Sequence record: NC_054917.1
Direction: 5' to 3' (one strand)
DNA length: 64,000 nt
From: Escherichia phage vB_EcoM_G50
The translations under genes and the position numbers were made by a program. The notes beneath the pieces are model-generated. The model did no database searches. It was given only the letters and a program-made list of their open reading frames with translations, and was not told the DNA's origin. Shown one piece after another: positions 40,733 through 53,664 of this stretch (positions are counted from its first letter, which is position 1; each line of letters starts with the position of its first letter).

Positions 40733-41203
40733 TTAATCATGTTTCCACACCCCATCGGTATTTGACCAAAGTCGCTGATTATCTGATCCTCGCCACAGCT
40801 TTTTGGTCGGAAGATTTTTCTCATACTTCCCATCAATAATAACATCAACATATTTAAGCATTTCTAGTTGTTTAATATCTTCAAATTTATATCCTGTCCA
40901 CAACCAAATGCTTTTATTGGGATAAAGATTTTTTACTGTTTGAACAATGCAATGAACAACATCTCGGTTATCAGGATAGAGAGGGTCTCCTCCAGTTATA
41001 GTTAATCCTTCTATATAATCATTATTCAAACATTCAATTAATTGTTCTAGTGTTTCACCAGTGAATGGAACGCCATTTCTAGCGTTCCATGTTGATTTAT
41101 TATAACACCCTTCACATTTATGCAAACAACCTGTAACGAAAAGAACGACCCTGCATCCAGGGCCATTCACAAAATCGCAAGGATAAAATCTATCATAATT
41201 CAT
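40733..41203 (-). CDS. nrdG: anaerobic ribonucleotide reductase activase NrdG (radical SAM)
   Basis: 156 aa with CxxxCxxC (CLHKCEGC); ATGA overlap with nrdD. Confidence 0.9.
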   Translation of the reverse strand: MNYDRFYPCDFVNGPGCRVVLFVTGCLHKCEGCYNKSTWNARNGVPFTGETLEQLIECLNNDYIEGLTITGGDPLYPDNRDVVHCIVQTVKNLYPNKSIWLWTGYKFEDIKQLEMLKYVDVIIDGKYEKNLPTKKLWRGSDNQRLWSNTDGVWKHD

Positions 41204-43017
41204 TGGTGTTTAACCCTATGCATGATTTCTTTATTTTTGCCGAGATTAAATCCACGTTCGTTCGGATTTCCCAAATAACCACAAGTTCTTCTTATTGTGT
41301 TCATCTTTTTAGGATCAGTTTCTCCACAAATAGAACAAACAAACCCGTTTTCAGTAGGAGTCATTTCATGGGTACTTCCACACGTAAAACATTTATCTAC
41401 TGGCATGTTAACACCAAAATAATCTAAATGTTGTGCAGCATAATCCCATACAGCCTCAAGACCTTTTAGGTTATTTTTCATATCAGGAAGTTCAACATAA
41501 GAAATGTGACCGCCTGTCGCAATGAAATGATATGGGGCTTCGCGAGAAATCTTTTCAAACGGAGTAATATTTTCTTCTACTGAAACGTGGAAACTGTTAG
41601 TGTACCAGCCTTTATCAGTAACATCCTTTACACTTCCATATTTCTCAGTATCAAGTTTACAGAAGCGATAACAAAGGTTTTCAGCAGGTGTAGAATACAA
41701 GCTAAAAGCAAAACCAGTTCTTTCAGTCCACTGCTTAAGACGAGCATTCATTTTAGTTAAAATTTCCTGTCCAATATCACGACCGACAAGAATATTCAAT
41801 TCGTGAATACCAATATATCCTAAGGACACTGAACTTCTACCGTTTTTAAATAACTCAATTATATCATCATCGGGTTTAAGACGAACCCCGAATGCACCTT
41901 CTTGGTAAAGAATAGGAGCAACAGTAGCTTTAACTCCTTTTAATGAACTAATTCTACACATCAATGCTTCAAAACACAAATCCATTCGTTCATTGAACAA
42001 TTCGGCAAATTTCTGTTCATTGAACTGTGTTCCAATATAAGAATCTAATGCAATACGAGGAAGATTCAGTGTTACAACGCCAAGATTATTACGTCCATCA
42101 AGAATTTCATTACCAGTCGAATCTTTCCATACGCTCAAGAAACTACGACAACCCATTGGAGAAACAGGAATAGATGAACCTGTGATAGCTTTATTATTCT
42201 TAGCTGAAATAATATCAGGATACATTCTTTTACTTGCACACTCTAGAGCAAGCTGCTTAATATCATAGTTCGGATCGTCTTTATAAAGATTGACACCCTC
42301 TTCAACGAACATAACAAGCTTAGGAAAAATAGGAGTTATCCCATCACGACCAAGGCCTTTAATACGATTTTTCAGAATTGCTTTCTGAATCATTCGTTCA
42401 GTCCAGTCAGTTCCCGTGCCAAATGTAATTGTTACAAAAGGCGTTTGTCCGTTTGAACTAAAGAGAGTATTTACTTCATATTCATAAGCTTGGAATGCAT
42501 CGTATACGTCTTTTTCTGTTTTAGATTGGGCATAATTCAATGCATCTGCGATTTGCCATTTTTCCGCGTCCTCAATATGTTTTGCATAGGTGCGTTTAAC
42601 ATAAGGAGAAAGTACTTTATCTACATTCGCAAAAGTTGTTCCGCCATATTGATGAGAAGCAACCTGCGCAGTAATTTGTGCCATAATTGCAGTAGCAACG
42701 CCAATTGATTTAGGAGTTTCAATCTGTGCATTACCGAGCTTAAATCCGTTCTCAAGCATTCCTTTTAAATCTACTAAACAACAATTAGTAAATGGAAGAG
42801 CAGGGGAATAATCAATATCGTGGAAATGGATAATTCCGCTTTCATGCGCTTTCATAATAAAAGACGGGACCATATTTTTGGCAATGTGTTTAGACACAAT
42901 ACCAGCCATAAGGTCCCGTTGAGTTGGAAAAACACGAGAATCTTTATTAGCATTCTCGTTCAAAAGGTCTTTATTAGTTTTATGAATTAATCCTTCAATT
43001 TCTTTTTCAATTGTCAT
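41200..43017 (-). CDS. nrdD: anaerobic ribonucleotide reductase NrdD, uninterrupted
   Basis: 605-aa continuous ORF with C-terminal zinc-ribbon and glycyl-radical region; no intron. Confidence 0.92.
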   Translation of the reverse strand: MTIEKEIEGLIHKTNKDLLNENANKDSRVFPTQRDLMAGIVSKHIAKNMVPSFIMKAHESGIIHFHDIDYSPALPFTNCCLVDLKGMLENGFKLGNAQIETPKSIGVATAIMAQITAQVASHQYGGTTFANVDKVLSPYVKRTYAKHIEDAEKWQIADALNYAQSKTEKDVYDAFQAYEYEVNTLFSSNGQTPFVTITFGTGTDWTERMIQKAILKNRIKGLGRDGITPIFPKLVMFVEEGVNLYKDDPNYDIKQLALECASKRMYPDIISAKNNKAITGSSIPVSPMGCRSFLSVWKDSTGNEILDGRNNLGVVTLNLPRIALDSYIGTQFNEQKFAELFNERMDLCFEALMCRISSLKGVKATVAPILYQEGAFGVRLKPDDDIIELFKNGRSSVSLGYIGIHELNILVGRDIGQEILTKMNARLKQWTERTGFAFSLYSTPAENLCYRFCKLDTEKYGSVKDVTDKGWYTNSFHVSVEENITPFEKISREAPYHFIATGGHISYVELPDMKNNLKGLEAVWDYAAQHLDYFGVNMPVDKCFTCGSTHEMTPTENGFVCSICGETDPKKMNTIRRTCGYLGNPNERGFNLGKNKEIMHRVKHQ

Positions 43018-45500: not shown

Positions 45501-45890
45501 TTAATCCAAAATATTATTAGGCATTGGTTGAACACTCGCAAGTTCTTTAAAGAACTCAGTAGAGTCAGGTAATTTAACCATTTCCGGAGCATGCTTACTA
45601 AATTTATGTTTGCAATGACGGCATTTATATTCAAGTTCCGGTTTACGCCAGTTAATCAATTGAACTTGTTCAGTACCGCATTCAGGACAATTAGGAACGT
45701 TTTTAGAAGCCCTTTCGCGACGTTCAACCATAACCATAATAGCATCCCAGGCTGGAGGTTTAAAATCTAAATCATCACAACCATGAATCTTTCCGCGCAT
45801 TTCCAGATCGTCTTCTTCACCAGCCATAATAATTTTAATTAGACTGGAATTACTTGAAGCTGCAATATCTTCTAATAGACGCTTTTTCAT
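45501..45890 (-). CDS. zinc-ribbon protein
   Basis: 129 aa with CPECG...CRHCKH. Confidence 0.45.
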
Positions 45891-46816
45891 TTCAATACCT
45901 CAATAGCATTACGTAAACCATTTGCTTTTGCATTAAGAGCTTTTAACAATTTAGTGTGTTCGGCAATCTGAGCTTCAACTTCAACTAGTCGAGATTTGAG
46001 GTATTCACGTTCTTCGCTCAAGTTATCAATCTTTTCTACTTTAGGCTCTTTTACAACTGTCTTATATGTATTAGGGTTCTTCAGTTTAATTAAAATGCGT
46101 GAACTGTATAACATTGAACCATTATCTTCGGTTTCGTCATACATTTCTACTACGTCCATGATTTTTAACATCATGCGGAGTTTATAAGATAACGAACGAA
46201 TAGTTTTGTTGTGCTTATTAATTTCTCTAGAGTTCATGGTGCCGAGATTACGTGAGTAATAATAAGGAACCTGGATATTAATTAATACTGATGAACCACC
46301 TGGCTTGTGTGTTACTTCATCAGCAATAACCCAATCCTTAACATGAACTGTATTTGTACGGTCATCGCCCGCGGTAAATAGTTTGCGAGCATGCTTAAAA
46401 AGCATATTCACTTGGTCATTGAATTGACAAGCAAATTTATCAGCAAATTTAGTTTCAGGAATGGTAGATAACCAATCAGCCAAATGGGTCTTTTTAACAT
46501 CGTTAACAATAGTAAATTCAACCAAATCAGTTATAGATGTCTCAGATTTAATAAAGCTCGGCTTCATAAAGTTTTTAATGTTATCGCGAGCTACAGTAGA
46601 AGATAACATACGAGAACGTTTAAACCATTGAAGCAAATTGCCCAACGAATGAGAATAAGCGTTTTGAGTATCTTTACAGATATGATTTTCCTGGCCAACA
46701 TATTGAAGGAAATCACGAAGAATATTATTGATTACTGCTCTGTGTCCGATCTGATAATTACGGTGTTTAGTAATAAGACTGTCAAAATAATCAATATAAT
46801 GTTTACGAGTTTTCAT
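45887..46816 (-). CDS. paralog family member 1 with C-terminal coiled coil
   Basis: 309 aa; conserved mid-region and C-terminal heptad tail shared with the next three ORFs. Confidence 0.5.
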   Translation of the reverse strand: MKTRKHYIDYFDSLITKHRNYQIGHRAVINNILRDFLQYVGQENHICKDTQNAYSHSLGNLLQWFKRSRMLSSTVARDNIKNFMKPSFIKSETSITDLVEFTIVNDVKKTHLADWLSTIPETKFADKFACQFNDQVNMLFKHARKLFTAGDDRTNTVHVKDWVIADEVTHKPGGSSVLINIQVPYYYSRNLGTMNSREINKHNKTIRSLSYKLRMMLKIMDVVEMYDETEDNGSMLYSSRILIKLKNPNTYKTVVKEPKVEKIDNLSEEREYLKSRLVEVEAQIAEHTKLLKALNAKANGLRNAIEVLK

Positions 46817-46868
46817 GTTCTTCTCACTTGGTTAATGATTTATACTCCGAGCCATCCTTGGCTTTAAA

Positions 46869-47870
46869 TTACTTAATTAACTGTAAAGCTTGTTCCAAAC
46901 GATCAAGGCGATTAACAGATTCTTCCCAAATCCTTTTAGCCTTCTCATATTCTTTCTGCGCTTTATTAGAAATTTCTAGAACTTCTTTATAAGCTTTTTC
47001 TAGTGCAATAACTTCTGGACGAATTTCTATCGGTTCAGGCGAATCGTCAAGACATTCCATTAGTTCTTCAAGGGTAGTTTCTTCTTTAGGAGTATTCACA
47101 ATTTCATCACATTTTTGTTGGTAAATTTCTTTATCAGTCGGTGAGTACGTACGTTTCACTTCACGAAGGCTAATTATAATTTTATATCCTTCCCAACCAC
47201 ACATATTTTTGAAAGGATATGTATGAATACTTTTTACAGTTTCCATACAGCCCAAAACCGCCTCTAATTGATAAGTTATAGTGCTAGCAATTGAGAAAAA
47301 TTTATTAATATTCTTTTGGTTAGCGTTTGGTGTAAAAAATCCATAATTCACAAAAATAGCTACTTTATTTTCATCAAGCTCATATTCTTTTACGATAATC
47401 ATATCAGAAGCCAAAGGATGAATTTGACGATAATCGCCATAACATAATTTAGAAGCTGATTTTAGAATTTGTCCTTTGAAAAGTCTGAAATTACTAATCC
47501 AACGACGAGTAAAAATATTCTCAGGATCTTCTTTATTATTAAGATGATAAGAATTAACATCACCGAACCAATTATATCCTACTACATCTTTAGTTCGTTT
47601 AATTTCTTTCCCAAATTTACTAAGAATATCTCTGTTGACTAAGTATGAAAGAAGACGAGACCCTTTAAAGGTTTTCTTAATGTCATCTTTATCTGTACGA
47701 CTAGAAATTTCACGAACTTCATGAATAAATTTGCCGGAAGAAACAATACTTGCATCAGTATTATTGAGCCATTGATTGATAATAGAAATCACACTATTCT
47801 GACTAGACATAGGTTTAACTTTATCATCAATAACGCTGTTGAACGATTTAATATATTCGTTGCGAGTCAT
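46869..47870 (-). CDS. paralog family member 2 with C-terminal coiled coil
   Basis: Start at MTRNEY with GAGGAG SD; family tail ...LEQALQLIK. Confidence 0.5.
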   Translation of the reverse strand: MTRNEYIKSFNSVIDDKVKPMSSQNSVISIINQWLNNTDASIVSSGKFIHEVREISSRTDKDDIKKTFKGSRLLSYLVNRDILSKFGKEIKRTKDVVGYNWFGDVNSYHLNNKEDPENIFTRRWISNFRLFKGQILKSASKLCYGDYRQIHPLASDMIIVKEYELDENKVAIFVNYGFFTPNANQKNINKFFSIASTITYQLEAVLGCMETVKSIHTYPFKNMCGWEGYKIIISLREVKRTYSPTDKEIYQQKCDEIVNTPKEETTLEELMECLDDSPEPIEIRPEVIALEKAYKEVLEISNKAQKEYEKAKRIWEESVNRLDRLEQALQLIK

Positions 47871-47898
47871 ATTAATCTCCTCAGTAGAAAGTAAGAAC

Positions 47899-47928
47899 AT
47901 TATACCACATCCTTGTGGCGAAGTAAAC
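47899..47928 (-). promoter_or_regulatory. T4-type early promoter
   Basis: GTTTAC-TTCGCCACAAGGATGTGG-TATAAT; -10-proximal sequence shared with 2418-2447. Confidence 0.55.
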
Positions 47929-48947
47929 TAGTTTAGTGCATTTAGTGCGTTGTTCAATTTAGAACGTTGCTTCGTGAGATTTTTTACTTTTTCTTGAGCT
48001 TTTTCTAGCATCTTTTCAGCTTCTAACACTTCATTAGTTGCTTTAACGAGTTCATCATCTACTGCCTTGATAGACTTTTCAATCGCATCCGCGTGCCATT
48101 TTTCAACAGGTTTAAGACTCGGATTTTCAACAGGAAGAAAATTCACTTTATTGAATTTCCATGCATCATTATTACCTGAACTATACATCCAAAATTTAGG
48201 ATCGTTTGATGAGTAATTAGATAAATTTAAGTTATCTTGCACTTCCTGCTTTTTCTCTTGCGGGACTTCATCTTTTCTCAAAAATTCATATTTAAATGAA
48301 ACGATCATATCAAGTTCATATGATGTTGTATCTAACTTAAATCGTTCAAAACGAGGTAAAATCTTAGATTGAACAGCAGCAACAACATCCATATACTTAA
48401 ATGCTTCTGTCAACTGCGATTTAAGGCATTCGCAAATTGAAAGAGAATTTTTTGTATTAGGTTTAAAGCTAATTCGTGCAGTTCTATTATTTTCTTTTAA
48501 TGGTCTTACTTCCATCTGAAGAGTATAACCATCAAATTTCAGGTTCTTTAAGTTAATATCAGAACCTTTTAATCGACTCGCAGTTGATAAAATTTGCTTT
48601 AATTGTCTACGGAATAGAGCAATAAATCTCCATTCAATACGATAATGATTTGGATTGAAAAATCCAGATGATAAATCGACCTTACTTTGACCAACGCCTT
48701 GAACAAATAGAGGATTTTTATAATCAATAGTTTTACAGAAATCGGTGAGCTGCTCACGAGCAGTCATTTGTGTAATATACCCCGCTTTACTAAAATGACG
48801 TAACCATTCACTGCTATTCATATATTTAAAGTGAATATCACGATTAACTTTATCAGGGTCTAAATTATTTTGGCACAAAAATGTCATAACATCACGAGTA
48901 TAGCTGGCATTACGAATCATATCTTCAATTTGAGAACGAGTTTTCAT
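47928..48947 (-). CDS. paralog family member 3 with C-terminal coiled coil
   Basis: 339-aa ORF. Confidence 0.5.
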   Translation of the reverse strand: MKTRSQIEDMIRNASYTRDVMTFLCQNNLDPDKVNRDIHFKYMNSSEWLRHFSKAGYITQMTAREQLTDFCKTIDYKNPLFVQGVGQSKVDLSSGFFNPNHYRIEWRFIALFRRQLKQILSTASRLKGSDINLKNLKFDGYTLQMEVRPLKENNRTARISFKPNTKNSLSICECLKSQLTEAFKYMDVVAAVQSKILPRFERFKLDTTSYELDMIVSFKYEFLRKDEVPQEKKQEVQDNLNLSNYSSNDPKFWMYSSGNNDAWKFNKVNFLPVENPSLKPVEKWHADAIEKSIKAVDDELVKATNEVLEAEKMLEKAQEKVKNLTKQRSKLNNALNALN

Positions 48948-48955
48948 GGTGTTCC

Positions 48956-49858
48956 TTAAGATTTAAGTAAATCAACAATTTTAATTAACTTTTCACGCTC
49001 AGATTTAGCTTTACTACTCAATCCAGATAGTCTAAAAATTTCATCATCATATTGTTGAATAGAAATATTCAGCTCTTCAATCTGTTTATTAAAATAATCA
49101 ATTTGTTCAGAATGTTTTTCGTTACTACGAACTGGTACAGGTTTTGTAGGCAATTTAGTTGAACTGGATTCATCCGGGCGATAAATTAAAATACAACTTG
49201 AACCAATAGGGCATTTTGCACCAGATGAATATTCTAATGTTCCAGCTTCTTTTAAAACTTCAAAAGCTAAACAGAGATGATGCCCCATATTAACATAATC
49301 TGTAGAGTGAGCTCTGATGTAATAATCATCGCCGCGAATACTAAATTTAAAGCATTTAAGGTCTTCTGTATTATTGGTCTTAAAAATCATTTGTTTATCT
49401 AGACCTTTAGCTAATCGAGCGCCTAATGCTAATAATCGTCGTTGATTTTCCCACAAATCCGCAATCATTTGATCGAATGATAATTTTGGCATTAGTCGAC
49501 CATAAAGGTCATATCCTTTATTATAATTACGAAGGATTTCACTCGCATTAATACGAGACAACGCTCCAATTTTATTAAGGGCTTTCATGATGCGATTAGA
49601 TAAACCCATTCCAGACCCGTTTGTTCGTTGTAAATGTTTATCTAATCCAAACCCAATATCAACTTTAAATTTATCTAAAATTTCAGCATGAACATCTCTG
49701 TCAATAACATTCAAATCCAAAGTTGGGTTAAATCTATGAAAAAATTTATCTGGCTCTCCACGACGAAGTACAGTCCATTCATTCAATTTTTTATTAACTA
49801 AAGATTTAATTACTGCATTGACATTATTAATTACTACTGACATATTTTCCTCACTCAA
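48956..49858 (-). CDS. paralog family member 4 with C-terminal coiled coil
   Basis: 300-aa ORF. Confidence 0.5.
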   Translation of the reverse strand: MSEENMSVVINNVNAVIKSLVNKKLNEWTVLRRGEPDKFFHRFNPTLDLNVIDRDVHAEILDKFKVDIGFGLDKHLQRTNGSGMGLSNRIMKALNKIGALSRINASEILRNYNKGYDLYGRLMPKLSFDQMIADLWENQRRLLALGARLAKGLDKQMIFKTNNTEDLKCFKFSIRGDDYYIRAHSTDYVNMGHHLCLAFEVLKEAGTLEYSSGAKCPIGSSCILIYRPDESSSTKLPTKPVPVRSNEKHSEQIDYFNKQIEELNISIQQYDDEIFRLSGLSSKAKSEREKLIKIVDLLKS

Positions 49859-50258
49859 TTTTCAATTTTACTAATACGCAGAATATGATGGAAAAGACTA
49901 TATAAGCACCACACACAGATTGAACTAATACCATTCCAAAGAACCAAACAATATTATCAAACAGTGTCTGTTTTACGTCGAAAGGACGTAAACTTACAGT
50001 AATATTATCACCTTTTTCTATTGAAGAATACATCTCTGGGGAAATATATTCACTAAATCTATAACCGTCTTTGAGTTCATATACAGCAATAAACGATAAA
50101 CTAGACCCCTTTCCTTGAGTTCCTGTAAGGGTATTAACTACAGTAACATCATAATCTTTATAGTGCATATAATCATTAATTGCGTAATAACCATATGCAA
50201 CTACTACACATAAACAACATATCAATAAATTCAATCTTTTAATTATCAACTGTTTCAT
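49851..50258 (-). CDS. membrane protein, N- and C-terminal TM segments
   Basis: 135-aa ORF. Confidence 0.45.
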   Translation of the reverse strand: MKQLIIKRLNLLICCLCVVVAYGYYAINDYMHYKDYDVTVVNTLTGTQGKGSSLSFIAVYELKDGYRFSEYISPEMYSSIEKGDNITVSLRPFDVKQTLFDNIVWFFGMVLVQSVCGAYIVFSIIFCVLVKLKIE

Positions 50259-50313
50259 AATAATCTCAATTAAAAGGGCTTAGAACCATTATACCATCCT
50301 TGGTATAAAGCGG

Positions 50314-50841
50314 TTATGCGAGTACCGTCTTTAACCGTTCTTCAAACTTCCGAAGAGTATTTTGGCGTTCAGCTCTTTGCTTTTTGTAAGTTTCAATACG
50401 CTCTGAAATGAGAGTGTATCGTTCATTTACTGATTCTTTCATAAAATCAGGAATTTCACGAGAAGCTTTAATCTCGTCAAATTTATCAATAACAGCTTGC
50501 TCTTCAGCAATTAAGTTATCATACATCAAAATATCTTTCTTGATGAACTCAATATCTTCTTGAGTTACACGAGATAATTTAGATGCTTTATCCTTTTTGT
50601 ACTGTTCGTTAGTATCACGAGACCAGTGTAATGTACGATTTTTATTCGTATTTTTGTAAATTTCTACAATACCAATCTCATCGATAATAACGATCCAATT
50701 CCAACGAGATTTGTAAATTTGTCCTCCATCAACCGTGATTTCACCTCCAATTGAGATGTCATTAAAGAACTTGCTTTGAGCTTCAGATTTAAATTTACCA
50801 TCATTGTAGTTTACCAAGTTGAAAATATCTTTAGCATTCAT
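50314..50841 (-). CDS. hypothetical coiled-coil protein
   Basis: Start at MNAKDIF with GGAGGAA SD; upstream part of track ORF is promoter read-through. Confidence 0.45.
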   Translation of the reverse strand: MNAKDIFNLVNYNDGKFKSEAQSKFFNDISIGGEITVDGGQIYKSRWNWIVIIDEIGIVEIYKNTNKNRTLHWSRDTNEQYKKDKASKLSRVTQEDIEFIKKDILMYDNLIAEEQAVIDKFDEIKASREIPDFMKESVNERYTLISERIETYKKQRAERQNTLRKFEERLKTVLA

Positions 50842-50869
50842 TTTCTGTTCCTCCGTAGTTGATAGTTGT

Positions 50870-50899
50870 ATAGTACCACAGAGGAACGGTCTTGTAAAC
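50870..50899 (-). promoter_or_regulatory. T4-type early promoter (repeat copy B)
   Basis: GTTTAC-18-TACTAT. Confidence 0.55.
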
Positions 50900-50901
50900 A
50901 A

Positions 50902-51216
50902 CTAAAAGAAACTTCTTTCACAATTTTTTCCACTGAACCACGCGCTCACTGCTTTCTTAGTCTCAGGAGCAGTGTTATCCATAAACCATTCAAAGGCAGC
51001 CTTTTTATGATTCTGGAGGGCTTCTCGGGCTTTAATCTGCTCACGGTCTATTAACACTAACATATGAGCCTTTCTTGTCACCATGGGCTTCTTATGATTT
51101 TTTGAATACTCCCAGTCATTTGTCCATCGCATTGTCGTTGCGAATTGAAATACAGCTTCTTTAATTTTAGTTTCGTAAATTTCACGAGCCTTTGAGTATA
51201 ACATCATTACCTCCAT
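50902..51216 (-). CDS. hypothetical protein
   Basis: 104-aa ORF. Confidence 0.4.
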   Translation of the reverse strand: MEVMMLYSKAREIYETKIKEAVFQFATTMRWTNDWEYSKNHKKPMVTRKAHMLVLIDREQIKAREALQNHKKAAFEWFMDNTAPETKKAVSAWFSGKNCERSFF

Positions 51217-51305
51217 TTACCAGTTTAATTCTAGTCATCTTTTTGATGGCAGTCCATATAATCTATTTCTGAACTGCCTTTTTATCTTAGAAGTCCTCTT
51301 ATGAA

Positions 51306-52274
51306 TTATTTCAGAAGAGTAACCTCAGCAATTTCTTCCCAACCGTTTTTGTCTGTCATAATAAAGTCAGCAAGATAAAGAGCAGTACGCAGTGAAACAT
51401 TACGTAAACGATTAACATTGACTTTCATCCATGATAATGCTTTATAAGTTTCTTCATCAGAAAGACCGCGCTTTTGCATCATGTCAGTTGAAAGAATAAC
51501 ATCTTCAACCCTGACCATAATTTCTTCATTAGTGTGAACACCCAAATCCAAATAAACTGAGCGGGACACTAATGCTTGTAAATGTGGAGCAAGTTTAGTA
51601 CCACGGTCTAATTCGCGGTCAATGTCAACGTTTGTGATAAAAACAATCGTTCCTTTAAATTCAAACTCACGCTCAATGCCTTTTTCTTCTAAGTAAGAAG
51701 ATGCGGTGCTCCAGCAGACTTTACGGGTCTCTCCAGTGTCCAGAGCAGCTTTCAGAAGATTAAGAATGTCCATATCAGAGAAAACATCCACATCATCAAT
51801 CAAAAGGACAGAATTCTCTTCACGATTATTCCAAAGCTGCTCATAAAGACCAATACCAGAGATTTTACCATTAATGCTTTTATATTCAATGTATCCAATA
51901 TCATTTGCTTTATTTAAAGCTTTATCTAAAGAATACGTTTTACCAATACCTGCTGCTCCCGAGATAATTAATGAACGAATGTTTCCGTTAATAATACCAT
52001 TCGTCATCATTCCCATAACATTAAATCTTTTATTAATGCGGGTTTTCATATCTTCATACGATTCTTTAACTTCTTCAACTTTTACACCATCATATGAAAT
52101 GTCTGATTTGTAAACCCAAACACCGCGACGTTTACCGTCAATTTCAACAAAAACTTTACCATCTCCTTGTGCATCTACCGGAGCATTATCTGGGAACCAT
52201 TCGCCTAAGAGCTCAAAAGTTCCAGAAATTTCTTTACCGAAGTAGATACCCTTATTGATAGTTACAGTTTTCAT
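51306..52274 (-). CDS. P-loop ATPase (AAA-like)
   Basis: 322 aa; Walker A GAAGIGKT, Walker B VLLIDDVD. Confidence 0.6.
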   Translation of the reverse strand: MKTVTINKGIYFGKEISGTFELLGEWFPDNAPVDAQGDGKVFVEIDGKRRGVWVYKSDISYDGVKVEEVKESYEDMKTRINKRFNVMGMMTNGIINGNIRSLIISGAAGIGKTYSLDKALNKANDIGYIEYKSINGKISGIGLYEQLWNNREENSVLLIDDVDVFSDMDILNLLKAALDTGETRKVCWSTASSYLEEKGIEREFEFKGTIVFITNVDIDRELDRGTKLAPHLQALVSRSVYLDLGVHTNEEIMVRVEDVILSTDMMQKRGLSDEETYKALSWMKVNVNRLRNVSLRTALYLADFIMTDKNGWEEIAEVTLLK

Positions 52275-52331
52275 TTTATTCTCCTTTGATTTGATAGGAC
52301 TACTATAACATAGTCCTATCAGTTTGTATAC

Positions 52332-52532
52332 TTATTTTGACATTTCTTCGATGTCACGACGATACCCGTCACGAACTTCACGAAGAGCTTCAAGGCCACA
52401 CATAGGCTCGATACCTGTAATGTGAACTTGATTAATCTGATACTCTACATCTTCTAACTGAGCGAAAACATAACGACGTTCAGCTGCACAACCAGATTTA
52501 GCTTTACCGAAACGTTTATTCAAAGTAGTCAT
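52332..52532 (-). CDS. hypothetical small protein
   Basis: 66-aa ORF. Confidence 0.4.
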   Translation of the reverse strand: MTTLNKRFGKAKSGCAAERRYVFAQLEDVEYQINQVHITGIEPMCGLEALREVRDGYRRDIEEMSK

Positions 52533-52570
52533 TTTGTATCTCCAATTTACTCATTTGTTTTGATAAATCT

Positions 52571-52600
52571 ATAGTATCAACAACTACAGACCATGTAAAC
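52571..52600 (-). promoter_or_regulatory. T4-type early promoter
   Basis: GTTTAC-18-TACTAT. Confidence 0.5.
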
Positions 52601-52630
52601 CGTTTTATGAAAAATTTTTGAAATAAAAAA

Positions 52631-52648
52631 GGGAGCCCGAAGGCTCCC
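52631..52648 (-). terminator. rho-independent terminator after the nucleotidyltransferase gene
   Basis: GGGAGCC-UUCG-GGCUCCC hairpin then U6AUUU. Confidence 0.65.
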
Positions 52649-52650
52649 TA

Positions 52651-53664
52651 TCATTTATAATAACTTCGGTGGTTTTCAAGATAGACCTTCTCAAGGAAGT
52701 CATCCCAGAAACTCATGTCTACTGTTTTAGGCATACCGTTCTTAGAAGCTTCAGTAGATGCTGCTTCTACTTGATCGACCACATCTTCCAAAAACTCTTG
52801 AACTGTTTTAAATGGATGTTTACCCAACTTCACGTCGAGAATAAATGGAGCATCTTGAAGTGGATAGACTAAGTCACCAGTTTTGTAAATTTCCAATAGT
52901 TGGAGTCCACCACGACAAGCATGACTCAAAGCTTTCCAGTCAATACCTTCATTGGCTTCAGCCTTACGAGCACGTTCACCGTATTCAGCATCTAATTTGT
53001 TCAGTGACTGCTTAAGCTCAATAAGAGAAAGCGTTGTCTGATATTTACGACCCAACACTGTGTAAAACGTCTGTGGGCCTGTTTTCTCATGATTATGGAA
53101 CACCCATTCACAGAATTCGTTTTCTGGAAGACGATGCTTAATATCTTCAACTTTAGTACGACGCTGCTTAATGGAACCGTCTTCTTGGTAATCAACCCAT
53201 TGCTCAGGGATTTGATTAACTACTTTCAATACATCGCGTAATGCAGCCAAACGAGAACCCTTGACACCGTATTTAGAAGCTTGCTTGCGGACATATCCTA
53301 AATAGGATTTCATGTTAGTCGTATAAAAACGAGAACGGTTGTCTTGAATAAACTTCCACACATCAGGCAAATCAGATTTAACCACTAGTTCAGGTGGAGT
53401 ATGAAGCATATCCAATGCTACAGTTTCACCATCTGCTGCTAATTTAAAGAAATATTTAAGACTGTATAGTTCATGGTCAATATCATCTTTAGTGTTTTTA
53501 GATGATGTATTGTTAGTGTTTTTACTCATGTGCTCTTTGACATTTCCGATAAGAATATCGCGAGCAGGAGGAACAAAGATTTCTTTAAAATCTACATCAG
53601 ATTCTGGGGTAGAAGTTCCATAAAGATGACTACCAAAATAGCTTTTCATTACTGTTTTCATCAT
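52651..53664 (-). CDS. Pol-beta-superfamily nucleotidyltransferase-fold protein, 337 aa
   Basis: N-terminal GS-x(10)-DVD motif (YFGSHLYGTSTPESDVDF) and downstream VALDML; large C-terminal helical region. Confidence 0.55.
   Translation of the reverse strand: MMKTVMKSYFGSHLYGTSTPESDVDFKEIFVPPARDILIGNVKEHMSKNTNNTSSKNTKDDIDHELYSLKYFFKLAADGETVALDMLHTPPELVVKSDLPDVWKFIQDNRSRFYTTNMKSYLGYVRKQASKYGVKGSRLAALRDVLKVVNQIPEQWVDYQEDGSIKQRRTKVEDIKHRLPENEFCEWVFHNHEKTGPQTFYTVLGRKYQTTLSLIELKQSLNKLDAEYGERARKAEANEGIDWKALSHACRGGLQLLEIYKTGDLVYPLQDAPFILDVKLGKHPFKTVQEFLEDVVDQVEAASTEASKNGMPKTVDMSFWDDFLEKVYLENHRSYYK

Follow-up and report, generated by a model that had tools for sequence, protein, structure and literature searches.

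Whether four adjacent genes of Escherichia phage vB_EcoM_G50 are paralogs, and what their products might do for the phage, was examined in a 64,000-nucleotide stretch of the genome (NC_054917.1), referred to here as the window. Four consecutive open reading frames (ORFs) of 309, 343, 339, and 300 amino acids (aa) lie on the minus strand of a 3,972-bp interval at positions 45887-49858. Many Tequatrovirus (T4-like) genomes match this interval at 96-97% identity, and the annotation of phages RB6 and KMB39 provides the names nrdC.3, nrdC.4, nrdC.5, and nrdC.6. The genes are co-oriented and adjacent, with intergenic gaps of 8-57 nt, and are flanked by nrdC.2 (a zinc-ribbon protein) on one side and nrdC.7 (a small membrane protein) on the other. 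Judged by profile comparison, the four genes constitute one superfamily and are paralogs across their full length; as far as these searches reach, the superfamily is restricted to T4-like phages. The favored reading of their function, to which a probability of about 0.6 is assigned, is that the proteins are made early, oligomerize as coiled coils, and inhibit host immune sensors without enzymatic activity.

The only significant BLASTP match among the four proteins pairs nrdC.3 with nrdC.4 (E = 2e-8, 25% identity, residues 3-224 with 12-223, the N-terminal two-thirds), and whole-length pairwise identities are 14-22%. The genes are distributed over three separate families in PHROGs (nrdC.3 and nrdC.4 in phrog_1435, nrdC.5 in phrog_2351, nrdC.6 in phrog_2257) and are likewise separated in Pfam, where nrdC.5 matches DUF7235 (PF23882), nrdC.6 matches PF26899, and PF26897 appears as a precomputed label on homologues of nrdC.4. 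Both observations speak for a reading without real paralogy, in which the likeness of the four proteins would consist of a low-complexity coiled coil and chance motifs.

Family profiles were compared using hhalign. Shallow profiles from a single genus gave weak links only, and profiles built from orthologues gathered in other T4-like genera were needed. With these, family 3 matched family 4 with a probability of 98% (E = 1e-13, score 98; column-shuffled null 15.7 ± 2.8), family 5 matched families 3 and 4 with a probability of 94% (E = 1.6e-7, score 59.9; null 14.6 ± 2.1), and family 6 matched families 3, 4, and 5 with a probability of 82% (E = 1e-5, score 46.4; null 13.6 ± 2.6). The observed scores are 3-6 times the shuffled null and more than 10 standard deviations above the nulls; reversed profiles, used as a second control, scored 12.5-21. 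The matches are collinear over roughly residues 5-260 (the N-terminal and middle regions) and lie mainly outside the coiled coil. The basic mid-region motifs quoted in the preliminary description of this DNA are present and are paired by hhalign, RRWISNFRLFKGQILKSASKL of nrdC.4 with RIEWRFIALFRRQLKQILSTASRL of nrdC.5.

Hidden Markov models (HMMs) from which one family at a time had been omitted were searched against 224 ORFs. The omitted members were recovered at E = 4.9e-15 (nrdC.3), 2.6e-18 (nrdC.4), 4.8e-18 (nrdC.5), and 3.4e-10 (nrdC.6, first domain at residues 9-164), and the top unrelated ORF appeared at E = 0.0037. In a mixed-profile HMM search of 1.84 billion cluster representatives, just 29 reached E ≤ 1e-3. 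Proteins resembling the representative P0232 are intermediates, with a middle region like that of nrdC.6 and a tail like that of nrdC.5. A protein of Klebsiella Marfavirus (P0237) matches nrdC.5 (3e-6), nrdC.4 (1e-3), and P0232 (1e-12), and P0232 and P0237 together bridge all of the families by plain BLASTP. The reading without paralogy is refuted by the hhalign nulls, the BLASTP bridges, and the leave-out HMMs, which agree with the concordant structural models on kinship, and its probability is now very small.

Among the four genes, the DUF7235 gathering threshold of 30 bits is passed by nrdC.5 alone; nrdC.3, nrdC.4, and nrdC.6 have no match to this profile at E ≤ 1 and lie outside that Pfam family. 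The threshold is also passed, via the tail region, by a single-copy Marfavirus protein (48.3 bits) and by P0232 (30.2 bits). The superfamily HMM does not match any other ORF of the window, including nrdC.8, whose C-terminus is likewise helical, nor does it match the genes of about 257 aa in phages Marfa and CIP9.

Copy number at the syntenic site differs by genus. One copy is found in Marfavirus (Marfa) and Kanagawavirus (CIP9). Three are found in Gaprivervirus and Dhakavirus (nrdC.6, an nrdC.5-like gene, and nrdC.4) and in Mosigvirus (an nrdC.6-like gene, an nrdC.5-like gene, and nrdC.3); the three-copy phages examined were MN01, SP18, Bp7, APCEc01, and NHEP29. All four are found in Tequatrovirus. 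The tandem duplication proposed in the preliminary description is thus upheld, with one superfamily present in 1, 3, and 4 copies at the same site across the T4-like genera. The family expanded by tandem duplication at a fixed position upstream of nrdC.2, from one copy to three to four, and the array continues to be reshuffled through deletions and chimeras.

The shared architecture extends from an N-terminal M(K)TR... to a C-terminal L..A(L/I)..LK. The N-terminal region is helical and contains the conserved helix (F)K.S..LS...A...L..F; a basic helix ending in A(S/R)(R/K)L..G(D) is followed by a beta-beta-alpha-beta-beta unit that includes the helix QL..A(L/F)..M..V, a variable linker, a motif of the 'P.PVE' type, and the C-terminal heptad tail. 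The C-terminus of each of the four proteins is formed by a helix of about 50 aa in which hydrophobic residues favor heptad positions a and d (occupancy 0.63-0.94 versus 0.13-0.28 elsewhere), in agreement with the heptad-repeat tail described previously, and weak matches of the tail to the GCN4 and BST2 coiled coils were obtained. Conservation within the superfamily is strongest in the block formed by the last 9 residues. Among the paralogs it is lowest over approximately the first 50 aa and in the linker preceding the tail.

Because the matches are collinear from the N- to the C-terminus, the earlier picture of divergent N-terminal domains joined to a shared tail is accurate only in part. Strong divergence of the N-terminal halves is a misleading description: homology extends along the entire proteins at 14-22% identity, and the one BLASTP pair spans the N-terminal two-thirds. 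Diversification of a single domain does not fit either, with divergence spread along the entire sequence and a variable stretch that is not consistently N-terminal within families. In nrdC.3, for example, conservation within the family is 93-96% over the first 60 aa and 63-69% in the middle.

Structures were predicted using AlphaFold2 (AF2). The model of nrdC.6, made from its own family only, has a predicted local distance difference test (pLDDT) score of 80 and a predicted template-modeling (pTM) score of 0.66. It consists of helices followed by strands at 165-170 and 173-178, a helix at 186-199, strands at 204-209 and 217-221, a linker, and helices at 242-271 and 277-294. In the model of nrdC.5 a helix at 99-125 precedes two strands, a helix at 168-184, two further strands, a linker, and a helix at 283-338. 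The order of secondary structure is identical in these two independent models, that of nrdC.5 being of low confidence. A Foldseek search of BFVD with the nrdC.6 model gave uncharacterized proteins of 300-370 aa from Kanagawavirus, Pectobacterium phage PM2, Acinetobacter phages Acj9 and Acj61, Erwinia phage Cronus, Citrobacter phage Merlin, and Klebsiella phage Mineola. The Merlin and Cronus proteins are also the top BFVD matches of the nrdC.5 model. Tail-completion and terminator proteins matched by the nrdC.5 model (TM score of about 0.2-0.5) were dismissed as noise and are absent when the good nrdC.6 model is used. No match of the superfamily to solved structures or known folds was found.

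No enzyme family was matched in Pfam, NCBIfam, or PADLOC, and PADLOC and NCBIfam gave nothing meaningful for the four genes. An alignment of 32 diverse members has no invariant column and no invariant polar residue, and just two leucines are conserved in at least 90% of the sequences. This pattern favors a binding or scaffolding function over an enzymatic one. Many phage records in GenBank label nrdC.2 to nrdC.10 (corresponding to positions 45501-52274 of the window) as 'thioredoxin' or 'Mur ligase domain-containing protein'. A thioredoxin or glutaredoxin assignment was rejected for the four genes: all four are without a CxxC motif and match no thioredoxin family in Pfam or NCBIfam. The 'thioredoxin' label seems to have been propagated from the gene name nrdC.x.

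The functional literature found on the four genes consists of a single paper, all other mentions being incidental. In that work (Srikant et al., eLife 2022, PMC9391042) neither ECOR17 nor dsr1-carrying MG1655 allows plating of a T4 clone with deletions, and plasmid-borne nrdC.5 restores the plating of this clone on dsr1 hosts; Dsr1 is the SIR2 NADase defense overcome by T4 NrdC.5, and nrdC.5 is termed an early gene. The NrdC.5 protein of the window is an orthologue (95.0% identity to T4 NrdC.5) with a full-length DUF7235 match, and nrdC.3, nrdC.4, and nrdC.6 are remote homologues of like architecture that differ in belonging to other PHROG and Pfam families. According to a 2026 preprint, E. 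coli Dsr1 has a tetratricopeptide-repeat (TPR) sensor homologous to that of Avs7, and the trigger of Dsr1 that emerged from a co-expression toxicity screen is the phage major capsid protein (PMC12803255). No earlier report placing the four genes in one superfamily with the anti-Dsr1 factor came up in the searchable literature; this link appears to be new, although the genes themselves were already known.

Since NrdC.5 disarms Dsr1, nrdC.3, nrdC.4, and nrdC.6 are candidates for an anti-immunity role. The anti-defense function guessed at in the preliminary description is therefore supported by published experiment for nrdC.5, through its T4 orthologue, whereas for the other three members it is inferred from kinship. 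Early expression is suggested by an early-type promoter-like site directly upstream of nrdC.4 (consensus score 10/12 plus an extended TG) and by the description of nrdC.5 as an early gene. According to the favored reading, the array proteins would be produced early in infection, would oligomerize through the C-terminal tail, and would block host immune sensors by non-enzymatic binding ahead of the late phage proteins. NrdC.5 would then be a stoichiometric inhibitor already present when the capsid protein appears, presumably by direct binding and with some contribution from the tail, and nrdC.3, nrdC.4, and nrdC.6 might cover other sensors or other variants of the Dsr1/Avs7 type.

A comparable role is played by DSAD1 of phage SPbeta, a phage protein that switches off the defense-associated sirtuin DSR2. 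DSAD1 binds the sensor region in the published structures (PMC10981675, PMC11087589). No similarity between NrdC.5 and DSAD1 was detected, and the two are compared as functional analogues. The dmd-tifA-adfA 'anti-TA (toxin-antitoxin) island' and the internal proteins IPI-III likewise comprise accessory early genes that are dispensable on laboratory hosts, neutralize specific defenses, and set host range (PMC9391042). Anti-defense clusters of T4-like phages are prone to amplification and deletion (PMC9391042). These clusters hold unrelated genes, whereas the nrdC.3-nrdC.6 array is one family multiplied in tandem.

The four paralogs might instead be subunits of a single hetero-oligomer, joined by their C-terminal helices and performing one job, anti-Dsr1 or other. 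Such an assembly would account for an extreme C-terminus that is the most conserved block among paralogs otherwise about 15% identical, and for genes that are adjacent and co-oriented with short gaps. It is rather unlikely, however, given that copies vary between 1, 3, and 4 among genera, that single-copy phages exist, and that phages lacking one or more members, or carrying chimeras, have been isolated. In addition, plasmid-borne nrdC.5 alone restored plating, although other paralogs were possibly still in that phage.

Selection was examined across six Tequatroviruses as the ratio of nonsynonymous to synonymous substitution rates (dN/dS). Values of 0.30, 0.22, and 0.19 were obtained for nrdC.3, nrdC.4, and nrdC.5, respectively, and 0.18 and 0.26 for the array neighbors nrdC.2 and nrdC.7; nrdC, gp49, and nrdC.8-nrdC.11 are at 0-0.07 and nrdD is at 0.11. 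The nrdC.3 gene is dimorphic, the allele of the window having 60% identity to T4 nrdC.3 and 78% identity to the Mosigvirus gene, and the dS of nrdC.3 is 0.59 as compared with 0.11-0.19 for most neighbors (0.24 for nrdD). These values point to allele exchange between lineages. The segment at 45501-46816, covering nrdC.2 and nrdC.3, is a recombination block with a dS of about 0.6 for both genes, and nrdC.2 is also dimorphic (129 aa in the window versus 104 aa in T4).

Several rearranged arrays were encountered. Salmonella phage Manna (L015:3715-4752; window equivalents 46869-49843) has an in-frame nrdC.6::nrdC.4 chimera in which the body of nrdC.6 (residues 1-267) is joined at a shared 'DEI' stretch to the linker and tail of nrdC.4; this isolated and viable phage has lost nrdC.5 and most of nrdC.4. 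An in-frame nrdC.5::nrdC.3 fusion without nrdC.4 is found on a 167-kb contig (P0119). The array of phage ACG-C40 (L014:4305-4716) has collapsed to a stub of nrdC.5 that is out of frame with the tail of nrdC.3, and only nrdC.6 is intact. In the nrdC.6 protein of Shigella phage Sf25 (P0121), about 83 aa are duplicated internally in tandem, for a total of 378 aa. The elevated dN/dS values, the nrdC.3 alleles, and the chimeras and deletions were counted in favor of the inhibitor reading as what may be an arms-race signature.

Several observations weigh against that reading. Functional data exist for nrdC.5 alone of the four genes, the promoter before nrdC.4 is a consensus match only, and the nrdC.5 model, calculated from a shallow alignment, is poor (pLDDT 53). 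The nrdC.6 protein is 97-99% identical across Tequatrovirus with a dN/dS of 0.07, and this strong conservation fits a housekeeping role better than an arms race. Three of the four proteins are basic (isoelectric point 9.2-9.4), which keeps nucleic-acid binding among the options.

These last properties, together with the conserved Arg/Lys-rich helix, would suit basic helical nucleic-acid binders or host-takeover factors (modulators of the nucleoid, of transcripts, or of replication), with an indirect anti-Dsr1 effect of NrdC.5; the purifying selection on nrdC.6 would agree with such a role. A high isoelectric point is common among proteins of AT-rich phages. The N-terminus of nrdC.3 weakly resembles the SAM-like DNA-binding domain of tyrosine recombinases (NCBIfam E = 0.0013, Pfam E = 0.079), but this match is sub-threshold (13.7 and 18 bits), occurs in 1 of the 32 members, and was rejected. 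No DNA- or RNA-binding family is matched by the other members, an Rfam scan of the region identified no RNA family, and the array genes are dispensable on laboratory E. coli, having been deleted in evolved T4 (PMC9391042). A nucleic-acid role for the superfamily is accordingly considered improbable, and inhibition of host immune sensors is preferred.

A more elaborate form of the inhibitor reading, offered tentatively and with some doubt, is a modular 'inhibitor cassette' in which the conserved coiled coil oligomerizes or docks and each diverged globular body blocks a different immune receptor, such as individual members of the large Dsr1/Avs7 family, whose TPR sensors detect major capsid protein. 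If this were true, duplication, allele exchange between genera, and in-frame chimeras such as that of Manna would represent a retuning of host range in T4-like phages.

The four ORFs given in the preliminary description were confirmed at 309, 343, 339, and 300 aa, with the correction that the maximal frames of nrdC.4 and nrdC.6 probably begin too early, the likely lengths of the proteins being 333 and 295 aa, respectively. Homologues of nrdC.4 are mostly 329-337 aa in length and begin with MTRNEY, which corresponds to ATG 47870, and GAGGA is found upstream of this codon. ATG 47900, the start of the 343-aa form, falls within the -10 box of the early-type promoter, and database entries of 343 aa are for this reason probably over-extended. 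Homologues of nrdC.6 begin with MSVVIN or MSQAIN, the window equivalent of which is ATG 49843, preceded by GAGGAAAA, again with GAGGA. The coordinates of all features are collected in Table 1.

Early-type promoter sites show no excess in the region as a whole (27 found versus 30.8 expected). The spacer upstream of nrdC.3 (46839-46868) contains TTTAAA-18-TATAAA and shares 'GCCA(C)AAGGATG' with the nrdC.4 promoter, and the regions upstream of these two genes may be related to each other. A repeat search of the region gave only short DNA echoes, namely 'ATGAAAACTCGT' at the starts of both nrdC.3 and nrdC.5 and a 23-nt match between the tails of nrdC.4 and nrdC.5.

Table 1. Coordinates of the nrdC.3-nrdC.6 genes and of predicted features within the array (window positions).
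Feature	Position	Strand	Basis and remarks
nrdC.3 coding sequence, 309 aa	45887..46816	-	ORF; phrog_1435, E = 2.7e-116; dimorphic allele
nrdC.4 coding sequence, probable 333 aa	46869..47870	-	phrog_1435, E = 8e-165; maximal ORF to 47900 is 343 aa
nrdC.5 coding sequence, 339 aa	47928..48947	-	DUF7235, 412.7 bits, E = 1.4e-123; phrog_2351; orthologue of T4 anti-Dsr1 factor
nrdC.6 coding sequence, probable 295 aa	48956..49843	-	phrog_2257; maximal TTG ORF to 49858 is 300 aa
T4-early-type sigma-70 promoter-like site, TTTACT-17-TGgTATAAT, directly upstream of nrdC.4	47899..47927	-	Consensus scan
Conserved basic helix of nrdC.5, residues 103-130, ...WRFIALFRRQLKQILSTASRLKGSD	48558..48641	-	hhalign and MAFFT; helical in both AF2 models
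Basic helix equivalent, nrdC.4	47433-47513	-	hhalign and MAFFT
Basic helix equivalent, nrdC.3	46367-46453	-	hhalign and MAFFT
Basic helix equivalent, nrdC.6	49391-49477	-	hhalign and MAFFT
Coiled-coil tail of nrdC.5, residues 283-338	47934..48101	-	Heptad occupancy; AF2 helix
Coiled-coil tail equivalent, nrdC.4	46872-47024	-	Heptad occupancy
Coiled-coil tail equivalent, nrdC.3	45890-46033	-	Heptad occupancy
Coiled-coil tail equivalent, nrdC.6	48962-49120	-	Heptad occupancy

Some features of the neighboring genes were also noted. In Tequatrovirus the fast-evolving nrdC.7 (49851-50258, 135 aa), a small predicted membrane protein, precedes nrdC.6, and in Gaprivervirus and Dhakavirus a predicted membrane ORF of 62-71 aa lies between nrdC.6 and the nrdC.5-like gene (L001:4733-4948; L003:5723-5911). 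Just upstream of the array, at 51306-53664, nrdC.10 and nrdC.11 encode an AAA-type ATPase-like protein of 322 aa and a nucleotidyltransferase of 337 aa; both are conserved across genera, with dN/dS values of 0.04-0.07. The nrdD gene (41200-43017) is an uninterrupted 605-aa ORF in the window. In the T4 clone examined (L005) nrdD is split, with a homing endonuclease gene nearby, and in MLP2 and Shinka a homing endonuclease is located between gp49 and nrdD.

Although no phage has been studied more thoroughly than T4, the four genes continue to carry the annotation 'hypothetical' or, wrongly, 'thioredoxin'. Their kinship with the sole known anti-Dsr1 factor turns nrdC.3, nrdC.4, and nrdC.6 into three concrete candidates, for which an anti-defense role is plausible; the finding is a useful lead that can be tested and does not amount to a new kind of system. 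The single-copy relatives in Klebsiella and Enterobacter phages join these candidates, and, from the fold-search matches, further relatives may be present in Acinetobacter and Erwinia phages. The conserved tail and the basic helix provide starting points for a structure-function dissection of NrdC.5. The locus illustrates how a counter-defense gene multiplies and recombines, and copy content and allele type at this site may be useful predictors of host range for therapeutic T4-like phages.

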